Assembly (NCBI GenBank): GCA_947476475.1
Contig: CANJQT010000001.1
Span: 3,570 to 67,569 of the forward strand
Direction of reading: 5' to 3'
DNA: 64,000 bases
Source of the DNA: Paracoccaceae bacterium
GTDB taxonomy: Bacteria > Pseudomonadota > Alphaproteobacteria > Rhodobacterales > Rhodobacteraceae
Part shown: positions 28,019-49,108 of the stretch, one piece after another
Numbering within the stretch: the first letter of the stretch is position 1
Layout: the number at the start of each line of letters is the position of its first letter
The notes under the pieces: model-generated
The model's input: only the letters and a program-made list of their open reading frames with translations
Databases searched by the model: none
Told to the model about the DNA's origin: nothing
Program-made: the position numbers and the translations under genes

Positions 28019-28945
28019 GTGGCAAGAGACCGCAACAGCGACATGGATTATCGCGGCCCGGTGCGCCGCGTGCTGGTGGCTGTTCTGGCGCTGGCGCTGG
28101 GCTTGCTGTTTCTGGTCTGGCGGATCGACAGCCCGCGGGTAGAGCGGTTCCGCAATGCCTTCATCGACCGGGTGGTGCCGTCGATGGATTGGGCGATGGC
28201 CCCGGTCACCCAACTGGCGGGGATGATAGACAGTTTTCAGGCCTATACCCGCATTTACGAGCAGAATCAGGAACTGCGGCGCGAGTTGCAGCAGATGAAG
28301 GCCTGGAAAGAGGCAGCCGTGCAGCTGGAGCAACAGAATGCGAAGCTGTTGGCGCAGAATCAGGTGCGGCTTGACCCAAAGCTGACCTCGGTTTCCGGGG
28401 TTGTGATGGCCGACAGCGGATCACCTTTCCGCCAGTCGGTGTTGCTGAACGTCGGCGCGCGGGACGGGATTGTCGATGGCTGGGCGGCGATGGACGGGCT
28501 GGGGCTGGTGGGGCGGATTTCGGGCGTGGCGCAGAACAGCGCGCGGCTGCTTCTGCTGACGGATGCGTCCAGCCGTATTCCGGTGACGATTCAGCCCTCG
28601 GGGCAGAAGGCGATGCTGTCGGGTGACAACAGCGCGGCACCGCCGCTGGAGTTTCTGGAATCGCCCGAACAGGTGCGCCCGGATGACCGGGTGATCTCGT
28701 CCGGGGATGGCGGGGTGTTTCCGGCGGGGATTCTGGTGGGCACCGTGGTGCAGACCAAGGACAAACGTTTCCGGGTGCGGCTGGCGGCGGACTATGACCG
28801 GCTGGATTTCGTCCGGGTGCTGCGCAGCCATCCCAGCGAGCAGATCGGCGGAGCCGGTGCTCTTATTGCGCCTCCGGGCCAGCCGCCGGTGCGGGGCTTT
28901 ACCTATCAATTGCCGCCGGCGGCAGAGGCGGATGGCGATGGTTGA
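28019..28945 (+). CDS. mreC: Rod shape-determining protein MreC
   Basis: TM helix, coiled coil (YEQNQELRRELQ), GLVGRIS, VISSGDGGVFPAG; operon position. Confidence 0.93.
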   Translation: MARDRNSDMDYRGPVRRVLVAVLALALGLLFLVWRIDSPRVERFRNAFIDRVVPSMDWAMAPVTQLAGMIDSFQAYTRIYEQNQELRRELQQMKAWKEAAVQLEQQNAKLLAQNQVRLDPKLTSVSGVVMADSGSPFRQSVLLNVGARDGIVDGWAAMDGLGLVGRISGVAQNSARLLLLTDASSRIPVTIQPSGQKAMLSGDNSAAPPLEFLESPEQVRPDDRVISSGDGGVFPAGILVGTVVQTKDKRFRVRLAADYDRLDFVRVLRSHPSEQIGGAGALIAPPGQPPVRGFTYQLPPAAEADGDG

Positions 28946-29534
28946 TCCACGCACTGCACGCCGTTGGGCATTTCAGTCGCTCTTTCTGGGGCTGGTGGTT
29001 CTGATCCTGTTCTTCCGGCTTTTGCCTTTGTCGATGGTGCCTGATGCCTGGCCCCTGCCGGCCGCGATGGTGGCCATCCTGCCCGACTGGCTTTTCCCCA
29101 ATGACTGGCCAGGACCGGACCTGTTGTTGTGCCTGACTGTCGTCTGGGTTCTGCGGCGGCCGGATTTCATGCCGGTTCTGGCGGTGGCGGCGGTGTTCCT
29201 GCTGGATGACTTTCTGACCATGCGGCCACCGGGCCTGTGGGCGCTGATCGTGCTGGTCGGCACGGAGTTTCTGCGCAAGCGGGAAACGGCGACGCGCGAT
29301 CTGCCTTTTGCCTGGGAATGGCTGATGGCCAGCGCGGTGATGGCGGGGATGGTGCTGGCTTACCGCTTTGCCCAGGCGCTGTTCATGATCCCGCAGGTCA
29401 GCTTCGGCCCGGTCCTGTTGCAGCTCCTGGCGACTGTGGCGGTCTATCCGGTGCTGGCGATTGCGTTGCAGCTGGCCTTCGGACTGCGGCGCGCGGCGCC
29501 GGGCGAAATTGACGCATTTGGGCAACGGCTATGA
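28938..29534 (+). CDS. mreD: Rod shape-determining protein MreD
   Basis: Hydrophobic, PDLLLCL...WVLRRP motif, between mreC and mrdA. Confidence 0.85.
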   Translation: MVDPRTARRWAFQSLFLGLVVLILFFRLLPLSMVPDAWPLPAAMVAILPDWLFPNDWPGPDLLLCLTVVWVLRRPDFMPVLAVAAVFLLDDFLTMRPPGLWALIVLVGTEFLRKRETATRDLPFAWEWLMASAVMAGMVLAYRFAQALFMIPQVSFGPVLLQLLATVAVYPVLAIALQLAFGLRRAAPGEIDAFGQRL

Positions 29535-39978: not shown

Positions 39979-40076
39979 TCTGAGGCGTATCCGCGCTGTT
40001 CCCAGGCTCCAGAACCGGGGGACGGTGTCGTACGCAAATTATGCGGCGGCGTTGGCTGGTCGTGGGGTGCAGTGGC

Positions 40077-40105
40077 TTGACATTCGCCGTTCCCCACGCC
40101 AGAAA
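40077..40105 (+). promoter_or_regulatory. Sigma70 promoter of the tRNA (TTGACA-N17-CAGAAA)
   Basis: Perfect -35 with 17-nt spacing, ending 12 nt before the tRNA. Confidence 0.6.
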
Positions 40106-40117
40106 CCGCAGCGGTGA

Positions 40118-40193
<76 letters not shown>

Positions 40194-40248
40194 AACAATC
40201 TTCATATGTTATTGATTTAGTTAGATAATAATGAAGAGAATGTTTTCT

Positions 40249-40270
40249 CTTCCCCCACCACTTCCCCCAA
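40249..40270. promoter_or_regulatory. Integrase arm-type sites, left arm (CTTCCCCCA x2, 12-bp period)
   Basis: Same motif and period as 47979-48000. Confidence 0.7.
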
Positions 40271-40546
40271 TAGGCTTTGGAAGGTCGCGGAATTTGGTGG
40301 AAGGTCAAACCTTTTTTGTTGCGATTTATGATGGGGCGATGACAGGGCCGGTCCTGATGGGAAAGCCGCCAGAGTTTCACCCACCCCCTTGCAGAATGAT
40401 TGCCCGTCGGCTGCCGTTTGCATTTTCCTGCTATCGGAAAACAATTCTACAGACGAAGGCGGTGCGCCGGTTGCACCCCATGAGCCGCTTCGCCAACCTT
40501 GGGGTAATCATAGGGTCGCCCAGCACCCGCTGATCCGCCGTTGTTT

Positions 40547-43500
40547 TCAGACGGCGAAGCGGCCCCCTTCGACAAGGCGGGCCTGTCCCAAGGCGGCGAG
40601 GCTTTCCAGCAAGGGTTGCACCGATGCGGCGCGACCGCGTTGGAAGTGGCGGGCCACCTGTTCGGGGGTGGCAGTGCCAAGGCCGGTCAGGGTGGCGCGA
40701 ACAGCGGCGATTTGGTCGGGCAGGGTTTTGGGCCACAGGGCCTTGGCGGTTGTTTCTGCCGGGCCAATGTCCATGGCGGTTTGTTCGCCCTTGGTAACGG
40801 TGCGGCCTGCGGGGTTTTGGTAGTCGGGGCGCAGCCAGCGGACCCGCCCGCGCGCTTCCTCGGCGGCGCGTTCCCGGTTCAGGTCCACCAGACGGTGCAG
40901 GATTTCGTCATCGGTCAGGTCGGCGGGCCAGCCGTAAGCCTCGGCCACGGCGGCATCAATCTGGTCGTGCAGGTCGCGCAGGATGCCGATTAACCCTTGG
41001 TCATAGATTTCCTTGTCCTTACCTTCGATCCGCTCCCCGGCCCGAAGTTTTTCAAGGACGTTATACATGGCGGTCAGGGTCAGCTTGGGGTGGGTTGTCT
41101 GTTGCGCCTTGCGGTGGGCGTCGAGTTGTTCACCCAAGGACCGCAGCCGGGCCTTGTGGGCTTCGGTGGGGTCGGGAAAGGGGAAGGGGTCGAAGCAAAG
41201 CGATTTGTTATAGCGCGGACGGTCCTCAAGGGTCCCGCCTGCGGAAAGTGCCCAAGCGACATGAAAACGTGACGAAAGCACAGACAAAGCCACGTCATCA
41301 TCTAAGGCGAACAATACAGTTGTGCTGTCCGCAACCGTATCAGATGCCAAAAAGACAAAGACGCGTTGCGAGGATGTCAGGGAAGTAACGATCATTCTCT
41401 GCAATCCCGAAAGAGCAGGCCTGAATGTGTTTCTGGGCTCACCATAAACCCACCAGTTCTCTCTGACTGACTTCCGGTTGTTTTCTTTGCGTTCGGGCCA
41501 TACCGTATCCATTAGATGCTGAAAAACGAGTGGGTGGTTCGTCCGCAATTCGGCAAGGGATAGTGCGCAAGCATCAATCGCTGTTTTCGGGTCCGCAGAC
41601 CTCTGAATGGCTATTCCGCCGATCCATGGCTTCAACAGTGCCTGAGAGCGTGGCTCAAGTTCTGCTATCTTTTCAGCATGAAACGGCGAAACAAGGAAAC
41701 CTTGCCCAGTGAGTTGATAGCCAACGCAACCCAGTCCACTGTTTGCTTTGAGTTCTGGCGCGCTGATAACGTCTGCTCCGATCCGCAAATCAGCGTAAAT
41801 CTTGCCCGTCTCGATGACAAACCGCACGGGCCTCCCCTCGGCCTCATCTTCACCCTTTCGTTCATCAGCCACAGCACCCAGCCGTCCGGTGGCCTTGCCC
41901 GCCTCGGCCACGGTCATGGCAATGCGCACGGCGGCACCGTCGCCTGCATCCACCCAAGGATGGTCGGGAATGGCAAAGATCAGCGACAGGGGCGTTTTGG
42001 GGTCGCTCAGATGCGGTTCCAGCACCTTGCGGTTAAAGGTCTGGCGCAGGGAATTGGTGGTGATGAAGCCAAAGCGCCTTGTGCCTTTGGCACGGGCCTT
42101 GTCGGTGGCTGGTTTCCAGCCCCGCGCAGCCAGCGCCGCCTTTTCCCACCAATACATAACGTAATCAGCGTTCTCAGGCACTTTCGGATAGACGGTCCTT
42201 AGTGCTTCAAGATAGCCATCATCATAAGACTGCCGTATGGTCCGAAGGCCAATAAAGGGCGGGTTGCCCACGATAAATTCGGCCTCGGGCCATTTGGCTG
42301 GCTGGGGTTTCAGGTACTCCAGCACCTGCACCCGCGCCTGCGGATCGGGCACCTGTTCGCCTGTGACCGGGTGGGTAAGGGTTGTCTGTCCATCCCAGCG
42401 GGTGACAGGTTTGCCGGTGCCGTCCAGCCGGGGTTTGGTGCCCACCCATGTCAGCACCGCATCGCGGTTTTCGATGTTCTTGAAGTCGCGCAGAACGGGT
42501 TCGGCGGGGGATGCCTTGCCATGGGTGCGGAAGTGCCATTGCAGATAGCCGATCCACAGCACCAGTTCGGCCACGGCGGCGGCCCATGGGTTCAGCTCCA
42601 GCCCAAGGAATTGGTGGGGGTCCACCGTATGGCCTGCCAGCGACAGGGCGGCCTGATCCTCGCCCAGATCAGCCAGAAGGGCGGTCACTTCGCCTTCAAG
42701 CCGCTTCATCAGTTCTAGGGCCACGTAAAGGAAGTTGCCCGACCCGCAGGCGGGGTCCAGCACGCGGATTTCGCAGAGTTTGGCGTGAAAGGCGCGGACG
42801 GTATCGCGTGCCTCATCCTCGCGCCCTTGGGCTGCCAAGGCGACTGCGGCGGCCTGCACGTCGCCCCAATCGGCGCGCAAGGGTTCGATGACGGTGGGCA
42901 CCACAAGGCGTTCGACATAGGCGCGGGGCGTGTAATGCGCGCCCAGCTTGTGGCGCTGTTTCTTGTCCAGCGCGCGTTCCAGAAGGGTGCCGAAGATGGA
43001 CGGTTCCACCTCGCGCCAGTCGCGGCTGGCGGCCTCGATCAGAAGCGACAGTTGCACATTGGTCAGGGGAAGGGCGTCGGCATCCCTGAACAGCCCGCCG
43101 TTGAAGCGTTTGAGGTCGGTGGTGAGGATGGCTGAAAAACCGCCGGTGTTCATGGTTTCCCACAGGGATTTGAGCGAGGGGGCCGCATGTTCGGGGTGGC
43201 CCCGCAGGCTTTTCAAGAGGCCAGAGAAACTGTCGCGCGGGATAAGGTCCACGTCTTCCGCGAACATGGTGAACAGGCAGCGCATCAGGAAGCGGGCCAC
43301 CGCCTCGGGTTCATGGCCCTGACCTTCGAAGGACCGGCCCAGTGCTGCCAAACGGTCGGCCACTTCGCGGGTGACTTCGGCGGCGATTTTGGACGGATCA
43401 AGTGCCTGCGGGTCGGTCCAGATCAACCGCAGCCGTTCACGGGTCTTTTCGTCCCGCAAGTCTTCCATGGTGATGCGGTAGCGGTTGCCATCGGGAAACT

Positions 43501-44020
43501 GGGTGTAACCTTGGCCCTGCCCGGTGAAATCGGCATAGACTTCGAAGACATGGCCCACGTCCACGATAATCAGGAAGGGCGGCCAGCCGTCGGCACGGGA
43601 AACCGCGCGGGCGTATCCGTCGGCCTGATTGCGGGCGCGCAGCATGGTGTCATCCCACCGCCGCGTGCCCCGTGCCCCATGACCCTTGCGGGTGGCGTTG
43701 GGCAGATCGGGCAGAAGGGTGGGTTGGGCATCATCGGCGGGCTGCGTGCCGCCCGTGCCTTGCTTGGCTTCCATGACGAAATGACCCGCGCGGTAAAGGT
43801 CGATGAAACCCCGCGTTTGAGCGTTGGTGTGAATGAAGGTCACGGGATGTTCAAAGCAATAGGAATTGGCGCGGGCGGCCTCAGTCGCGGGGGAGGGTCT
43901 GGGTAAACCCAGCACGTCGCAAAGTTCACTTGCGAAGGTCTGGAAGTTGGCGCGTTCGCTGCCACCAGAGGTCTGCCATCTTTGGATAAACTCTTCGACC
44001 TGCAAATTCCCGCCCGCCAT
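40547..44020 (-). CDS. MmeI-like Type IIL/IIG single-polypeptide restriction-modification enzyme (nuclease, m6A MTase, TRD)
   Basis: N-terminal FIDLY...MEAKQG PD-(D/E)xK nuclease, FNGGLF spacer, LDPACGSGNFL motif I, IVGNPPF motif IV, FDPFPFP after the TRD; 1157 aa, uninterrupted. Confidence 0.9.
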   Translation of the reverse strand: MAGGNLQVEEFIQRWQTSGGSERANFQTFASELCDVLGLPRPSPATEAARANSYCFEHPVTFIHTNAQTRGFIDLYRAGHFVMEAKQGTGGTQPADDAQPTLLPDLPNATRKGHGARGTRRWDDTMLRARNQADGYARAVSRADGWPPFLIIVDVGHVFEVYADFTGQGQGYTQFPDGNRYRITMEDLRDEKTRERLRLIWTDPQALDPSKIAAEVTREVADRLAALGRSFEGQGHEPEAVARFLMRCLFTMFAEDVDLIPRDSFSGLLKSLRGHPEHAAPSLKSLWETMNTGGFSAILTTDLKRFNGGLFRDADALPLTNVQLSLLIEAASRDWREVEPSIFGTLLERALDKKQRHKLGAHYTPRAYVERLVVPTVIEPLRADWGDVQAAAVALAAQGREDEARDTVRAFHAKLCEIRVLDPACGSGNFLYVALELMKRLEGEVTALLADLGEDQAALSLAGHTVDPHQFLGLELNPWAAAVAELVLWIGYLQWHFRTHGKASPAEPVLRDFKNIENRDAVLTWVGTKPRLDGTGKPVTRWDGQTTLTHPVTGEQVPDPQARVQVLEYLKPQPAKWPEAEFIVGNPPFIGLRTIRQSYDDGYLEALRTVYPKVPENADYVMYWWEKAALAARGWKPATDKARAKGTRRFGFITTNSLRQTFNRKVLEPHLSDPKTPLSLIFAIPDHPWVDAGDGAAVRIAMTVAEAGKATGRLGAVADERKGEDEAEGRPVRFVIETGKIYADLRIGADVISAPELKANSGLGCVGYQLTGQGFLVSPFHAEKIAELEPRSQALLKPWIGGIAIQRSADPKTAIDACALSLAELRTNHPLVFQHLMDTVWPERKENNRKSVRENWWVYGEPRNTFRPALSGLQRMIVTSLTSSQRVFVFLASDTVADSTTVLFALDDDVALSVLSSRFHVAWALSAGGTLEDRPRYNKSLCFDPFPFPDPTEAHKARLRSLGEQLDAHRKAQQTTHPKLTLTAMYNVLEKLRAGERIEGKDKEIYDQGLIGILRDLHDQIDAAVAEAYGWPADLTDDEILHRLVDLNRERAAEEARGRVRWLRPDYQNPAGRTVTKGEQTAMDIGPAETTAKALWPKTLPDQIAAVRATLTGLGTATPEQVARHFQRGRAASVQPLLESLAALGQARLVEGGRFAV

Positions 44021-44141
44021 ATCTATGCCGGTTCACTCTTGCACCTGTAGTTTCGTGAACGGAAGAGGCTTTGGCGGATTGAGAGTTAGTTCCCGGCCTC
44101 AGCTTGCGATTGTGTGCCAGGGTTGCGCAGATCGGCCCCTG

Positions 44142-44300
44142 TTATTTGCGCCGCAATAGTCGTCTTTGTCGCGCAGCCCTCTTGCGGCACCCTTCGCAGC
44201 AATAGTTCGCGTCAACGCGCCGAAAGCAGGGAATGGCTTCGCAGCACCACAGGCACCGCCAGCCACCGCGCACCGCCCTGTGCAGCAGAAACGGGCGCAT
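44142..44300 (-). CDS. Small Cys-rich Zn-ribbon-like protein (52 aa)
   Basis: MRPFLLHRAVRGGWRCLWCCEAIPCFRRVDANYCCEGCRKRAARQRRLLRRK: CxxC...YCxxxCR pattern with a basic tail. Below the ORF-track cutoff. Confidence 0.55.
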   Translation of the reverse strand: MRPFLLHRAVRGGWRCLWCCEAIPCFRRVDANYCCEGCRKRAARQRRLLRRK

Positions 44301-44856
44301 GTTACGCCTGAGAACAGTGGCTGATCAGGCGCAACCAGCTCCTGTAACGGCTGAAAACAACGGAAAGGTGAAGGCCGGATACGCCTTCTGTCAGAGATAC
44401 GCGCGCGTAATGGTCGCGGGGGGAGGTAGGAAAGTCTCTGGCGCTATGACCGCAGGGACCGCTTGGGAAGCCATCTCATAACGCTAACACAGGTTTTCCT
44501 CGCGCGCGTAATGGTCGCCGGGGGGGCTGAATCCCTACTTCAACAAACCCAAGGACCGACGTTCCTCTTCGCCTGGCATAAATCGCGACAAAAAAGGTTG
44601 GGGCTTGGGTCTGGCGTCTGAGGGGCGAATGGACGACGCCGTAAATACGGGCGTTATCGGCCTAAACAATCAAGAGATTCAACTTTTTCCGCCGCCGCCT
44701 GTTTCCGCCTATGCCGCCAGCCGACCAGCGCGGCAGAAACAAGCGCCTGCGACGGCTGAAAACAGCGGCTGATCAGCGCGACCAGCTCCTGCAATCACCC
44801 GCTTTTCAGGATGCAGCCGTTGAAAACAACGTCTGATCAACGGGACCACCAGCGCC
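44256..44856. repeat. Paralogous 80-90-bp segments (44256-44347, 44714-44794) plus a shorter third copy (44817-44856)
   Basis: Shared core TGARAACARYGKCTGATCA...ACCAGC(T)CC, aligned by eye. Confidence 0.7.
44400..44600 (+). other. Two tandem ~101-bp cos-like units, each starting with the exact 18-mer CGCGCGCGTAATGGTCGC
   Basis: The repeats at 44400 and 44501 are directly visible. Each is followed by G6-7...(AAAGTCT or AATCCCT)...GGACCG, the layout I recall from HK97-type cos regions (inference). Confidence 0.45.
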
Positions 44857-44957
44857 AGGATTTGCCACCCCAGAATGGCCTTTCATAGTTGACCGTCACA
44901 CCACCGCGTTCGTCGGTTTAAATCCACACTGCATCTTGAACGGGCGCGGGCATGGCT

Positions 44958-45095
44958 TCACCTTTGACTTTCTGGGGGCGAAAGGCGGGTCAAGCTGTTG
45001 ACCTTACCCGATCCGCGAAACCGGCCCGCCCCGCAACCCGCAGCCTTCCTGCCGATTGCCCGCTGTTTGATGCGCTGTGCCTTATCACTGCCCAT
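44958..45095 (-). CDS. Small basic hypothetical protein (45 aa) downstream of the initiator-like gene
   Basis: MGSDKAQRIKQRAIGRKAAGCGAGRFRGSGKVNSLTRLSPPESQR with a strong SD (AGGAGGT) upstream. Confidence 0.5.
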   Translation of the reverse strand: MGSDKAQRIKQRAIGRKAAGCGAGRFRGSGKVNSLTRLSPPESQR

Positions 45096-45122
45096 GTCGT
45101 CACCTCCTATGAGTGGTAAGTA

Positions 45123-45653
45123 TTAGTGTTCCATTTCAGAACCGAAGCCGGTGCCGAAAGTGGCGCTGACGGGTTCTGTAGCGGACCCAGATCGGGGCCT
45201 TCGGTTCTGTAGCGGACCCATGTCGAGTGGCGACGGTTCCGCTACAGAACCGCATTCTGTTTTTGGCTTCCAATATCGCCAGTCATTTGTTGCAGCCTGA
45301 TTGCCTTTGGCGGTGATTGTGGTTTTGGTCGTCAGCCGCCATTCATGTGCGCGTCGATGATACCAATGGCCGGGGGTGATCAAGACAAGGAAGCCCTTGT
45401 CCTGCAATTCGTCATAGGCGCGCTGGACCGTGGCCTTACCCAAGCCCAGCGCCTCTACCGCCTCGTTCATCGAAAGGCGAACCTGCCCATTATTGCTGCC
45501 GTTGAACCGGGTATGCACTTCGAGAAAGACTTTGACGGCAGCCCCCGAAAGGGACCGAAAAGCCGATGATTTCAGGAAGGCATACGGCATGGGCGCATAT
45601 TGCCCTTCCTCTGGGCGTTTGCCTGTCCGTCCGTTTGATCCGCGTCTAGCCAT
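45123..45653 (-). CDS. HTH-domain protein, putative replication initiator
   Basis: AFRSLSGAAVKVFLE...NNGQVRLSMNEAVEALGLGKATVQRAYDELQDKGFL winged HTH; the 3' end carries iteron-like repeats. Confidence 0.7.
   Translation of the reverse strand: MARRGSNGRTGKRPEEGQYAPMPYAFLKSSAFRSLSGAAVKVFLEVHTRFNGSNNGQVRLSMNEAVEALGLGKATVQRAYDELQDKGFLVLITPGHWYHRRAHEWRLTTKTTITAKGNQAATNDWRYWKPKTECGSVAEPSPLDMGPLQNRRPRSGSATEPVSATFGTGFGSEMEH
45128..45251. repeat. Four iteron-like repeats, consensus GGTTCTG-N4-GGA(A/C)C (putative ori)
   Basis: Copies at 45128-43 (inverted), 45172-89, 45203-20 (exact 18-mer pair) and 45235-51 (inverted). Confidence 0.7.
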
Positions 45654-45783
45654 GCAGGGTCTCCCCATAGGCCAGGAAGGCCACAAGGCGGGCTTGGGGT
45701 TCCGGCAGGCCATGGCGCGACATCAGGCGGCGCACGGGCGCTGGCGGGGGGCTGTGGCGGGTGTTTGAGGCGTTGGCGGTCAT
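45646..45783 (-). CDS. Small hypothetical protein (45 aa), translationally coupled
   Basis: MTANASNTRHSPPPAPVRRLMSRHGLPEPQARLVAFLAYGETLHG; ATGA overlap with the wHTH gene and overlap with the initiator-like gene start. Confidence 0.6.
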   Translation of the reverse strand: MTANASNTRHSPPPAPVRRLMSRHGLPEPQARLVAFLAYGETLHG

Positions 45784-46088
45784 GCTGCCACCTCCACGCT
45801 CAAGGTAACGCGTGTATGCAGCACATAGCGCGCATGATGGCCCGAGAATGCCCCGCCGTGTTCCTCGGTTTTCGTTTCGATGTCCAACCCGTGTTCGTGG
45901 CGCAGATCGAAAATGTAGGCGCTCCACCTCGGGCCGGGGTTATCAATAGGGGTGCAGCCTTTCGGCCCTGCCACCATCAGGCATTCCAATGCCCATCGGT
46001 CGCGCCCCTGCACGATAATCGTTCGCACTGTGCCGTCGCTTTGGTGGACGGCGAACCGGGCTTTGCCCCAGCGTCTTGTTATGTGCAT
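45780..46088 (-). CDS. Winged-helix-like DNA-binding protein
   Basis: GRDRWALECLMVAGPKGCTPIDNPGPRWSAYIFDLRHEHGLDIET...HGGAFSGHHARYVL. Confidence 0.7.
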   Translation of the reverse strand: MHITRRWGKARFAVHQSDGTVRTIIVQGRDRWALECLMVAGPKGCTPIDNPGPRWSAYIFDLRHEHGLDIETKTEEHGGAFSGHHARYVLHTRVTLSVEVAA

Positions 46089-46199
46089 ATGCTCATGCCT
46101 TTTGCGGCCTTGAGCAAACGCGGCTGATGCCCTAAACTCATCGTGCAACCGAATGAGATTAAAGCCGTCGCGCGTTCGCTCGTGCGGCGGTTTCTCATT

Positions 46200-46379
46200 T
46201 CAAGCACCTGCACGGCTGGCGAGCCAATCGGTGATTTTGCTTTCCGGCCATGCAACGGCCTTGCCTGTCAATCTTACCGGGCGCGGAAACAGGCCCTTGG
46301 CCATAAGGTCATAAATTGTGCTACGAGCTAGACCCGTCAGGTTTTCAACCGCCGCGCGGCGCAGGTGTCTATCTGCCAT
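46200..46379 (-). CDS. alpA: AlpA family regulator/excisionase
   Basis: LRRAAVENLTGLARSTIYDLMAKGLFPRPVRLTGKAVAWPESKITDWL. The frame is open upstream to an ATG at 46562 with a GGAGGT SD. Confidence 0.9.
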   Translation of the reverse strand: MADRHLRRAAVENLTGLARSTIYDLMAKGLFPRPVRLTGKAVAWPESKITDWLASRAGA

Positions 46380-46578
46380 CTTCATTTCCTTTTTCACGAT
46401 TGGTTTCATTGCAAAGCCTGTCAGCCGGAACGCGCCGTTGCCTTGATCGCCAACTGCATCGCGTCCAGCCGTTTGTGACTGCCTCACCCGGTTGCCCCGG
46501 GGCACTTCCTGCGCTTTTCCGGTGCTAAGCACCGTGACTTTCTTCGGGACTTTTTGTCCCATTCCACACCTCCAAAAC

Positions 46579-46613
46579 AAAAAAACCGCCAGAGCCTTTC
46601 GGCACATGGCGGT
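46579..46613 (-). terminator. Intrinsic terminator upstream of alpA
   Basis: ACCGCCA-(inner GCC-GAAA-GGC stem-loop)-TGGCGGT followed by a U-tract on the minus strand. Confidence 0.75.
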
Positions 46614-46702
46614 CCGCCCACCCGAGGATGAGCATCGCTATTTTCGAAAAGGAATCCGAGGGTTTGGCTTACCGCCCCCGCAGACACACATTTCCACCAA
46701 GC

Positions 46703-46731
46703 AAGATAGTTCTCTTTATGTTCTCCGTCAA
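46703..46731 (-). promoter_or_regulatory. Sigma70 promoter TTGACG-N17-TATCTT with an alphaproteobacterial LexA box (GAAC-N7-GAAC) in its spacer
   Basis: -35 at 46726-31, -10 at 46703-08; + strand GTTC-TCTTTAT-GTTC at 46709-46723. Confidence 0.8.
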
Positions 46732-46776
46732 GCCCAGTTGTTCCGTGCAGTGCCGCGCTGGAGGAAGATGGTTTCG

Positions 46777-47976
46777 TTATACAGTTAAAACAATTACTTG
46801 ATTGCGCTCTTGGGCCACAAACGCCGCCCAAGCCTCCATCATCTTGCGCCGTTTCTCAAACACATCACTCCGCGCATAGGCACGTTCCACCGAATCGCCG
46901 GTCAGATGGGCCAAGGCGGCTTCGGCCACTTCGCGCGGATAATTCGTGCGTTCTTGCGCCCATGTGCGGAAAGACGTGCGGAAGCCGTGAATGTCCGCCG
47001 CAAACCCCAGTTCCTTCACCAGCTTGGATAGCGTCATATCGGATAGCGGGCGGCCTTGCTTGGTGCCGGGGAATGCAAACCCGGTGCCATCACCCAGCGC
47101 CCGTGCATCGGCCAATATTTCCAGCGCGCGGAGGGAAAGCGGAACGCGGTGCGGGCGCTTCATCTTCATGCGCGCGGCAGGGATTTCCCAGACTTTGGCG
47201 GTCAGGTCAATTTCATCCCATACCGCTTCCCGCACTTCGCCGGATCGGGTGGCGGTCAGCACCAAAAACTCTATCGCCAGCTTGGTCGCCTGACCGGCCC
47301 CTGATGCTTTCACCGTTTCAAGGCAGCCCGCAACGTCCGCATAGGGCAGCGCCTTCCTGTGTGCCTGCCGCTTGGCGGTCTTGGGCAAAGCCTGTGCAAT
47401 GTTCTCTGCCGGGTTATCCTGCCGCCATCCTTGGGCGATGGCCCATTTCAACACGGTCCCAATGCGCTGGCGCACCCGTCGCGCGGTTTCGGCCTTTTCC
47501 GTCCAGATCGGGGACAGAACGGCCAGCACGTCTGCGGTGTTCACGTCCGTCACCTTCAACCGGGCCAGCTTCGGGAAAGCGTAGTTTTCCAATGAGGTGA
47601 TAAAATCCTGCGCGTGTTTGGGGCTGCGCCATGTCGGCTTGTGCAGTTCATGCACCTTTCGCGCAGCTTCCTCGAACGTCAGGACCGCCAAAGCCTCGCG
47701 TCGGGCTTGCAGCGGGTCGCCACCCGCGCGCGCCAGCTTGCGGTTTTCAAGGGCCACTGCGCGCGCCTCTGCGAGCGATACAAGCGAAGGCGAGCCTAAC
47801 CCAAGTTCGCTTCGCTTGCCCCGGATGATGATGCGCTGCACCCAGAACCGTGAACCGTTCGCGTCAACCCGCAGATAAAGGCCATGCCCGTCGAAATACT
47901 TCCCCGGCCCGGTCGCGTTCTTCACGGCCTGCGCGGTCAGCGCTTTTTCGGGCGTCCGGTTTAAATGCTGGGCCAT
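46777..47976 (-). CDS. int: P4-like tyrosine integrase with N-terminal arm-binding domain
   Basis: DGHGLYLRV...LGLGS.SLVSLAEAR arm domain; catalytic R (TATRSGE), HGFR, H (ALAH) and Y (ERAY) present. Confidence 0.95.
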   Translation of the reverse strand: MAQHLNRTPEKALTAQAVKNATGPGKYFDGHGLYLRVDANGSRFWVQRIIIRGKRSELGLGSPSLVSLAEARAVALENRKLARAGGDPLQARREALAVLTFEEAARKVHELHKPTWRSPKHAQDFITSLENYAFPKLARLKVTDVNTADVLAVLSPIWTEKAETARRVRQRIGTVLKWAIAQGWRQDNPAENIAQALPKTAKRQAHRKALPYADVAGCLETVKASGAGQATKLAIEFLVLTATRSGEVREAVWDEIDLTAKVWEIPAARMKMKRPHRVPLSLRALEILADARALGDGTGFAFPGTKQGRPLSDMTLSKLVKELGFAADIHGFRTSFRTWAQERTNYPREVAEAALAHLTGDSVERAYARSDVFEKRRKMMEAWAAFVAQERNQVIVLTV

Positions 47977-47978
47977 TT

Positions 47979-48013
47979 CTTCCCCCAATCCTTCCCCCAA
48001 TAAATGGGGGAAG
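47979..48013. promoter_or_regulatory. Integrase arm-type sites, right arm (CTTCCCCCAA x2 plus inverted TGGGGGAAG)
   Basis: 47979-88, 47991-48000 and inverted 48005-13, directly upstream of int. Confidence 0.7.
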
Positions 48014-48119
48014 TGAACGGACTATGGCGGAACATGGCGGCTATGGGAAGGGGTTATTTATTTGTAATTATGAGATAAAATGGAATGCACGGGAATGCCT
48101 TGGAACAGAAAATGGCAGA

Positions 48120-48135
48120 CCTCTGCTCCACCAAA
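48120..48135 (+). repeat. att core, displaced tRNA 3' fragment CCTCTGCTCCACCAAA
   Basis: Identical to 40180-40195. Confidence 0.92.
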
Positions 48136-48163
48136 TCCCTGAAATCGCGAACTTGTCGGCGGG

Positions 48164-49108
48164 TCAGAAACCGCGCCAGCCCCGAACTTTGGTGTAAAGG
48201 CTGGGCATGTAGCTGAAGGCCAGTAGGATTGCTGCCCGTTTCGGGGTTGCGCGCGCTTTCAACAGCACGTGCAGGTAACGCCGCGCCAGTCGCGGGCGGT
48301 TGGCAAGGATCAGGAAGGCGGCTGCGTTGCCGTAGTGTTTGGCCAGATCTTGCGTGCTGTGACCCGCGCGCCGCAGCTTGCCGGTGATGTAGACATAGCT
48401 TTGCCGGGACAGGCGAGTGTCGTGCGAGATATGGTCGTTGCCATCCGCGCGGCGGGGCTTGTAGCTGAAGATGTAAAGCGGCTGGGGGATGAAGCCGAAG
48501 TTGCCCTGCTGGGTCAGGCGCAGGGTGAAATCCCAGTCAACATTGTTGCGCAGCCGTTCGTCGAAGCGGCCGGCGGCGAGGACTGCGTCGCGGCGTAAAA
48601 GCATGGTGGGCATGTCGATGAAATTGCCTTGCAGGGTCGCCCGAAACAGATCGCCGCTCAGCGGGGTGCGGTGGACGGGTGGCAAGGTGCGGGCATCCGC
48701 CAGAGCGCGTTCCGCCTCTGACGTATCGGTATGGGCGACAGAGGCGGTGTAGACGCCGATCAGATCGGGACTGTCCTGCAAGACACGCATCTGACGTTCG
48801 AACCGGTCGAACAGGCTGACATCGTCGCTGTCATGGAAGGCAACGAAATCACCCTTCACCGCATCAAGGCCGGTGTTGCGCGCCGCGGCCGCGCCGCCGT
48901 TTTGGGCACGCCGCACGACGCGGATCCGCGGATCGTTGAGGCTGGCCATCGCGGCGGCAATATCCTCGGTCGAACAATCGTCAGCCACTATGATGTCGAG
49001 GTTCCGGTAGCTTTGTGCGCAGATGGAACCGACAGCCCGCTTGAGTTTTTCGGTCCGATTGTAGACCGGTACAATGACACTTATCAAAGGCTGATTGTTC
49101 ACGCTCAC
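48164..49108 (-). CDS. Glycosyltransferase family 2
   Basis: LISVIVPVYNR, VADDCSTED, GAAAARNTG, FHDSDD, DWDFTLRL. GTG start is inferred. Confidence 0.9.
   Translation of the reverse strand: MSVNNQPLISVIVPVYNRTEKLKRAVGSICAQSYRNLDIIVADDCSTEDIAAAMASLNDPRIRVVRRAQNGGAAAARNTGLDAVKGDFVAFHDSDDVSLFDRFERQMRVLQDSPDLIGVYTASVAHTDTSEAERALADARTLPPVHRTPLSGDLFRATLQGNFIDMPTMLLRRDAVLAAGRFDERLRNNVDWDFTLRLTQQGNFGFIPQPLYIFSYKPRRADGNDHISHDTRLSRQSYVYITGKLRRAGHSTQDLAKHYGNAAAFLILANRPRLARRYLHVLLKARATPKRAAILLAFSYMPSLYTKVRGWRGF

Follow-up and report, generated by a model that had tools for sequence, protein, structure and literature searches.

A candidate LexA operator in the promoter-like spacer between int and alpA of a small tRNA-Ala island in a Paracoccaceae bacterium

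A 7.9-kb island in the 64-kb window (the whole 64,000-nucleotide stretch of Paracoccaceae DNA analysed here) carries, within a promoter-like sequence facing its alpA gene, a 15-bp direct repeat that in silico resembles an operator of the host LexA in both form and quality. We hold with modest confidence that this repeat is a real LexA operator of the host, situated in the spacer of the promoter between the integrase gene (int) and alpA. This reading is favoured because of the boxes on the SOS genes of the host, the score of the site (21.4 bits), the layout in which the box fills the spacer, the box retained in a sister island and the enrichment of boxes among islands with an HTH_91 gene. Since a very good match to a LexA site lies inside a promoter, DNA damage probably switches the island on. 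A strong terminator stands between the boxed promoter and the ribosome-binding site of alpA, and a second control step is therefore likely.

The island is located at the 3' end of tRNA-Ala(cgc) and is flanked by a 16-bp repeat, CCTCTGCTCCACCAAA, at 40180 and 48120. Homology with the sister island stops at 48136, matching the edge of attR. All genes of the island are on the minus strand, with int and alpA co-directional, and follow the order int, promoter with box, leader, alpA, HTH_91 gene, RepO-like gene, a repeat-rich stretch of ~1.1 kb with a Cys-rich ORF, and an MmeI-type gene. The features, in ascending coordinates, are as follows.

About 40118–40195, plus strand: tRNA-Ala(cgc), including attL (CCTCTGCTCCACCAAA, 40180–40195)
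40547–44020, minus strand: MmeI-family restriction-modification enzyme with four MmeI Pfam domains, the cargo
44142–44300, minus strand: small Cys-rich ORF (CxWC...CxxGCRKRAAR)
45123–45713, minus strand: RepO-like/HTH_36 gene with a weak RepO-like N-terminal domain (E = 1.8e-5)
45780–46088, minus strand: HTH_91 winged-helix gene (PF22324, 2.7e-37)
46200–46562, minus strand: alpA ORF, 120 aa from the ATG at 46562 (Pfam PF05930, 5.9e-18)
46574–46615, minus strand: intrinsic terminator with a GC-rich stem, a GAAA loop and U7-G-U4
46703–46731, minus strand: sigma-70-like promoter TTGACG-N17-TATCTT, with the box at spacer positions 3–17
46709–46723, minus strand: candidate LexA operator, exact GAAC-ATAAAGA-GAAC, a GTTC-N7-GTTC direct repeat on the plus strand
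46777–48000, minus strand: tyrosine integrase (int), P4-type, with arm, central and catalytic domains
48120–48135, plus strand: attR, a 16-bp repeat of the tRNA 3' end

The product of alpA matches a PHROG annotated as excisionase/transcriptional regulator. The replication module consists of the weak RepO-like N-terminal domain and iteron-like repeats; four of the latter, of the GGTTC-N7-GAACC type, are found at 45128–45252 in the 3' end of the RepO-like gene and may be the island origin. The Cys-rich ORF has no family match, and is regarded as a real gene because an ORF of the sister island (L071:4964-5227) is 59% identical to it. Noncoding repeats were also observed at 44266–44850, with three or four copies of ~30 nt containing CTGAAAACA(G/A)CGGCTGATCAG, and two 24-nt copies of CGCGCGCGTAATGGTCGC(G/C)GGGGG occur at 44400 and 44501.

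The minus strand from 46731 to 46703 reads TTGACGGAGAACATAAAGAGAACTATCTT and is parsed as TTGACG, a 17-nt spacer and TATCTT. The spacer, GAGAACATAAAGAGAAC, has the composition GA-GAAC-ATAAAGA-GAAC, its final 15 nt being the box. The earlier note had described a TTGACG-N17-TATCTT promoter aimed at alpA with GAAC-ATAAAGA-GAAC in its spacer, and the sequence is exactly as first described. The promoter-like match agrees with the consensus at 9 of 12 positions, and a transcription start is predicted at about 46696. It is the sole sigma-70-like match on the minus strand in 40000–48300, an interval in which promoter-like matches are at the level of shuffled sequence (3 versus 2.2 +/- 1.7 expected). 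A role of the box as an integrase arm site was ruled out, attR being 1.4 kb distant. The window has a single further exact GTTC-N7-GTTC, at 28998–29012; since it lies inside a long ORF (28707–29534) and has a low score of 10.1 bits, it is probably due to chance.

The host genome encodes lexA and recA. Exact GTTC-N7-GTTC boxes lie just upstream of host recA, uvrA, lexA, imuA, uvrD and an mmcB-like gene, with two overlapping boxes in the case of lexA; the large gene after imuA is presumably dnaE2. GTTC-N7-GTTC is given as the established alphaproteobacterial SOS box in PMC9578287, which also tabulates the Caulobacter crescentus SOS box of da Rocha et al. 2008. The identification of GTTC-N7-GTTC/GAAC-N7-GAAC as the alphaproteobacterial LexA site in the earlier note thus agrees with the literature and with the SOS genes of the host. 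The core and spacing of the Caulobacter-type box are identical to those of the island site, and the host's own SOS genes use the motif. Work on Rhodobacter sphaeroides and Rhizobium likewise bears on the alphaproteobacterial SOS box. Alphaproteobacterial SOS boxes are associated with DNA-repair genes, whereas the island site is on a mobile island.

The bare 8-base core is no commoner than chance. The window contains 2 copies versus about 1.5 expected, and the genome 148 copies versus about 161 expected from tetramer frequency, with no genome-wide enrichment of the N7 spacing over other spacings. The extended site, unlike the bare core, is significantly beyond chance. A 21-position matrix was trained on seven host boxes (recA, uvrA, lexA twice, imuA, uvrD and the mmcB-like gene). 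With this matrix the island site, ATAGTTCTCTTTATGTTCTCC, scores level with the imuA box and the first lexA box and ranks ninth in the 3.9-Mb genome and fourth among untrained sites. The runner-up in the window reaches 13.0 bits, 8 bits below the island site. The 13 best-scoring sites of the genome are all outside coding sequence, a distribution to be read in light of the preference of the matrix for T-rich spacers, and hence for intergenic DNA.

It is unlikely, in our estimation, that the repeat and the hexamers came together fortuitously in an AT-richer intergenic stretch and that LexA does not regulate the island. The chance frequency of the core and the shuffle-level number of promoter-like sites count against the LexA-operator reading and are what such a coincidence would predict, and a matrix built from T-rich intergenic sites would favour an intergenic sequence. 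The site nevertheless equals bona fide SOS boxes in score, and of the untrained sites in the 3.9 Mb just three others reach its level.

The arrangement of the site is also difficult to reconcile with coincidence, since the box fits the spacer exactly, as it does in three independent promoters of the host that lie outside the window (C63:14556, C100:7459 and C132:1236). Each of these consists of a -35 element (TTGCAT/TTGATT), 2 nt, the 15-bp box and a -10 element (TATATG/TATATA/TATATT). The boxes are in the opposite orientation to the island box, and the layout is otherwise the same. All three promoters precede paralogous genes of 96–98 aa without a known family, which adjoin an ArdA-type antirestriction gene and a 1456-aa methylase/helicase-like gene. 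These genes look like LexA-controlled genes of conjugative elements. The shared layout makes the box-filled spacer a recurrent promoter design on the mobile elements of this host, and LexA may therefore be a common entry point for them. High-scoring boxes were also seen upstream of a ribbon-helix-helix (CopG) gene (C35:30852) and of an HTH_17/MerR-like excisionase-type gene (C72:1866); these are candidates for further SOS-wired mobile-element genes.

The int-alpA-HTH_91-Rep backbone is present in 40 of the 401 genomes of the order, as is the HTH_91 gene, and the island itself in 2 of the 16 genomes of the genus. Its sole close relative, the sister island (G365; L071 = G365:C21:35500-50000), occupies the same tRNA-Ala in another species of the same genus. 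The two share 76% identity in coding DNA and 83% in the int protein. The sister island is ~4.6 kb and has an XRE/cI-like HTH gene in place of the MmeI gene, indicating that the cargo slot after Rep is variable. BLASTN finds no match between the int-alpA spacers of the two islands. The sister spacer (~560 bp) nonetheless contains a perfect box, GAAC-TTTATAG-GAAC, which is oriented as in the island and placed immediately behind the stop codon of int. At the genome-wide rate, the chance of an exact box in this diverged spacer is ~0.02, which argues against a fortuitous match. The surroundings of the sister box weigh on the other side, as it directly adjoins the end of int and no promoter was recognised around it.

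Across the wider set of relatives the box is patchy. The alpA-upstream regions of 49 non-redundant HTH_91 islands contain 8 exact boxes versus 1.4–2.4 expected, and of the ten spacings tested N7 occurs most often (8 versus 1–6 for the others). No box was found in L037–L039, which have an identical architecture, or in L065 and L020, and the 76 metagenomic loci with related integrases, some of which may come from hosts other than Alphaproteobacteria, contain one low-scoring box. The box was accordingly rejected as a general feature of the family; its patchy occurrence indicates that it is facultative, recurring in certain lineages. The scarcity of the box among most relatives fits a chance match and counts against the LexA-operator reading. 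Conservation in homologs, which the earlier note had proposed as a check, is thus found in the same-genus sister and a subset of HTH_91 islands, and is wanting in L037–L039 and nearly all of the metagenomic loci.

The same comparison bears on whether the repeat is instead the operator of an island-encoded protein, namely AlpA, the HTH_91 protein or the RepO-like protein. The iteron-like repeats at 45128–45252 also have GTTC/GAAC half-sites 7 nt apart, as expected if an island protein recognised both. They are inverted (GGTTC-N7-GAACC) rather than direct, however, and the alpA-upstream regions of HTH_91 islands show no enrichment of inverted N7 arrangements (2 and 0 versus 8 direct). Moreover, relatives with very different AlpA and HTH_91 proteins have the same LexA-type direct repeat. 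An operator for an island protein is therefore very improbable, and recognition by host LexA is the preferred reading of the repeat.

The region between the boxed promoter and alpA complicates a simple LexA switch. The U-tract of the terminator runs directly into the ribosome-binding site GGAGG (46573–46569), which is followed by N6 and the ATG at 46562. In the sister island (L055) a terminator with a 13-bp stem is found in the same position, with a conserved tail, TTTTTGTTTTGGA(A)AGGAGG, that leads into the alpA ATG. The U-tract and this ATG lie too close together to accommodate a promoter, and alpA of both islands would therefore have to be transcribed through the terminator, from the boxed promoter or from int. 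It follows that release of LexA alone may yield mostly short RNA. That the terminator would stop most transcripts of the promoter before alpA is a further point against the LexA-operator reading. A terminator directly upstream of the alpA start is confined to the island and its same-genus sister, and was rejected as a family-wide feature; L079 and L134 have two weaker terminator-like features further upstream of alpA.

These observations raise the alternative that the LexA-controlled promoter essentially makes a terminated RNA of ~120 nt, an SOS-induced small RNA or decoy leader, and that alpA needs a separate antitermination signal. Feedback by AlpA, a factor from a phage or plasmid, and read-through from int are candidates for such a signal. 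The canonical terminator (GC stem, GAAA loop, U7) abutting the ribosome-binding site and the lack of promoter room in the sister island are consistent with this explanation, as is the fact that a Pseudomonas aeruginosa protein named AlpA is an antiterminator (PMC7969949). That protein was rejected as a homologue of the island AlpA, however, since comparison with the P. aeruginosa AlpA structures gave no sequence match at E <= 0.1. An Rfam search of the island matched the tRNA alone and assigned the leader to no family, the leader sequence is not conserved between the two islands, and matches to the leader DNA in 400 genomes of the family are confined to the coding part of alpA. Nor does any stretch of the leader longer than 11 nt have a complement elsewhere in the island. 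P4-type RNA immunity or leader pairing was likewise rejected, the longest complementary match being 10 nt and the longest repeat 11 nt, which is the chance level in 8 kb. A promoter devoted to a terminated RNA thus seems distinctly unlikely.

A 17-codon mini-ORF, MCVCGGGKPNPRIPFRK, was observed in the leader (46638–46691, minus strand). It begins 4–5 nt past the predicted transcription start, ends ~20 nt before the hairpin, and could encode a leader peptide; it was not seen in the sister island. The translation start of alpA has three candidates, at 46562, 46409 and 46379. The AlpA domain spans residues 65–114, and the core shared with homologues, which are 67–69 aa long and cover the C-terminal half only, begins near the ATG at 46409. 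The N-terminal extension (46410–46562; 51–61 residues, in frame) starts behind the strong GGAGG ribosome-binding site, has no family match and is lacking in 63 homologues. Either an insertion specific to the lineage or an untranslated leader may account for it.

Under the preferred reading of the repeat as a host LexA operator, LexA bound to the spacer would block RNA polymerase in the undamaged cell. Following DNA damage, RecA-stimulated self-cleavage of LexA would free the promoter, and a transcript of ~120 nt would extend up to the terminator. The alpA, HTH_91 and RepO-like genes would be reached only by read-through or by transcripts rescued by antitermination. AlpA would then act with Int to excise the 7.9-kb island, and the products would probably drive replication as well. 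We infer the binding of LexA, the transcription start, induction by the SOS response and what AlpA and Rep do from the features described above. A stricter version of this scheme, which we regard as quite improbable, is a two-key switch in which damage alone gives the ~120-nt leader RNA, and the excision and replication genes need a second factor that overrides the terminator. The second factor could be AlpA, through positive feedback, or an antiterminator of an incoming phage, GTA or plasmid. If so, the island would act as a minimal hitch-hiker of Alphaproteobacteria, for which amplification of the restriction-modification cargo, or escape, would require damage and a helper at the same time.

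The earlier note had also proposed that the element has no recognisable repressor, uses host LexA as its switch, and is primed by the damage that induces helper prophages. The first proposal stands to the extent that no cI/XRE-type repressor was found among the island ORFs; the absence of a repressor is unproven because HTH_91, a DNA-binding protein, could be a regulator. The second is supported in silico by an operator-quality site in a promoter-like spacer facing alpA, and is incomplete insofar as the terminator intervenes. The helper prophage framing is not supported. The island does have PICI-type features, including int, an alpA-type regulator and a specific att site. However, no capsid, terminase, packaging, primase or helicase family was detected in any ORF of 40194–48119 (Pfam, PHROGs) and no helper link was found for the island, leaving a PICI or satellite reading unsupported.

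Host-LexA control of mobile elements is already known, and the island would add another case. Mobile-element promoters repressed by host LexA include CTXphi rstA, Bacillus phage GIL01, integron intI, coliphage 186 tum and SaPI operon I, and elements of this kind have reportedly been reviewed by Fornelos, Browning and Butala in 2016. In these systems, as proposed for the island, host LexA acts in place of a repressor of the element itself or beside one, at an operator that overlaps the promoter. Several LexA-controlled elements need a co-repressor, such as RstR or gp7; none was identified in the island. To our knowledge, none of these elements is an int-alpA tRNA island of Alphaproteobacteria. 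PMC9578287 also cites integrons and ICEs as users of host LexA. If confirmed, the present case would show that host LexA can directly control mobility in small int-alpA islands of marine Rhodobacterales-type Alphaproteobacteria as well, and would tie the copy number of a restriction-modification defence gene, and its spread, to the SOS response.

Proteins of the AlpA type serve in excision and activation (PMC6092414). In the E. coli PICI EcCICFT073, alpA is induced by helper phage independently of SOS (Fillol-Salom et al. 2018, PMC6092414), in accord with the contrast to characterised PICIs drawn in the earlier note. EcCICFT073 and the island both have int and alpA followed by replication genes. 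EcCICFT073 has divergent int and alpA and carries pri-rep and packaging genes, whereas in the island int and alpA are co-directional, packaging genes are lacking and a LexA box is present. If the LexA box is confirmed, the island would stand in simple contrast to E. coli PICIs, in which alpA does not respond to SOS.

The alpR-alpA system of P. aeruginosa is a damage-induced antitermination switch (PMC7969949, PMC9371919) and resembles the island, as read here, in its damage input, its small AlpA-named regulator and the intrinsic terminator in the controlled leader. The sensor in P. aeruginosa is the LexA-like AlpR and not LexA, however, and the terminator precedes the target genes and not alpA.

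Finally, SGI1 offers a model for the island. Binding of host LexA to the sgaDC promoter of SGI1, and induction of this promoter, have been demonstrated (Pons et al. 2022, PMC9927553). Both SGI1 and the island are integrative, non-self-transmissible elements with a host SOS operator, in the island a candidate one, on the promoter of activator or excision genes. DNA damage or incoming ssDNA wakes SGI1 and would do the same for the island. SGI1 is a gammaproteobacterial element of 43 kb with a palindromic box of the CTGT-N8-ACAG type and is mobilised by IncC plasmids, whereas the 7.9-kb island has the alphaproteobacterial direct repeat and a terminator in its leader.
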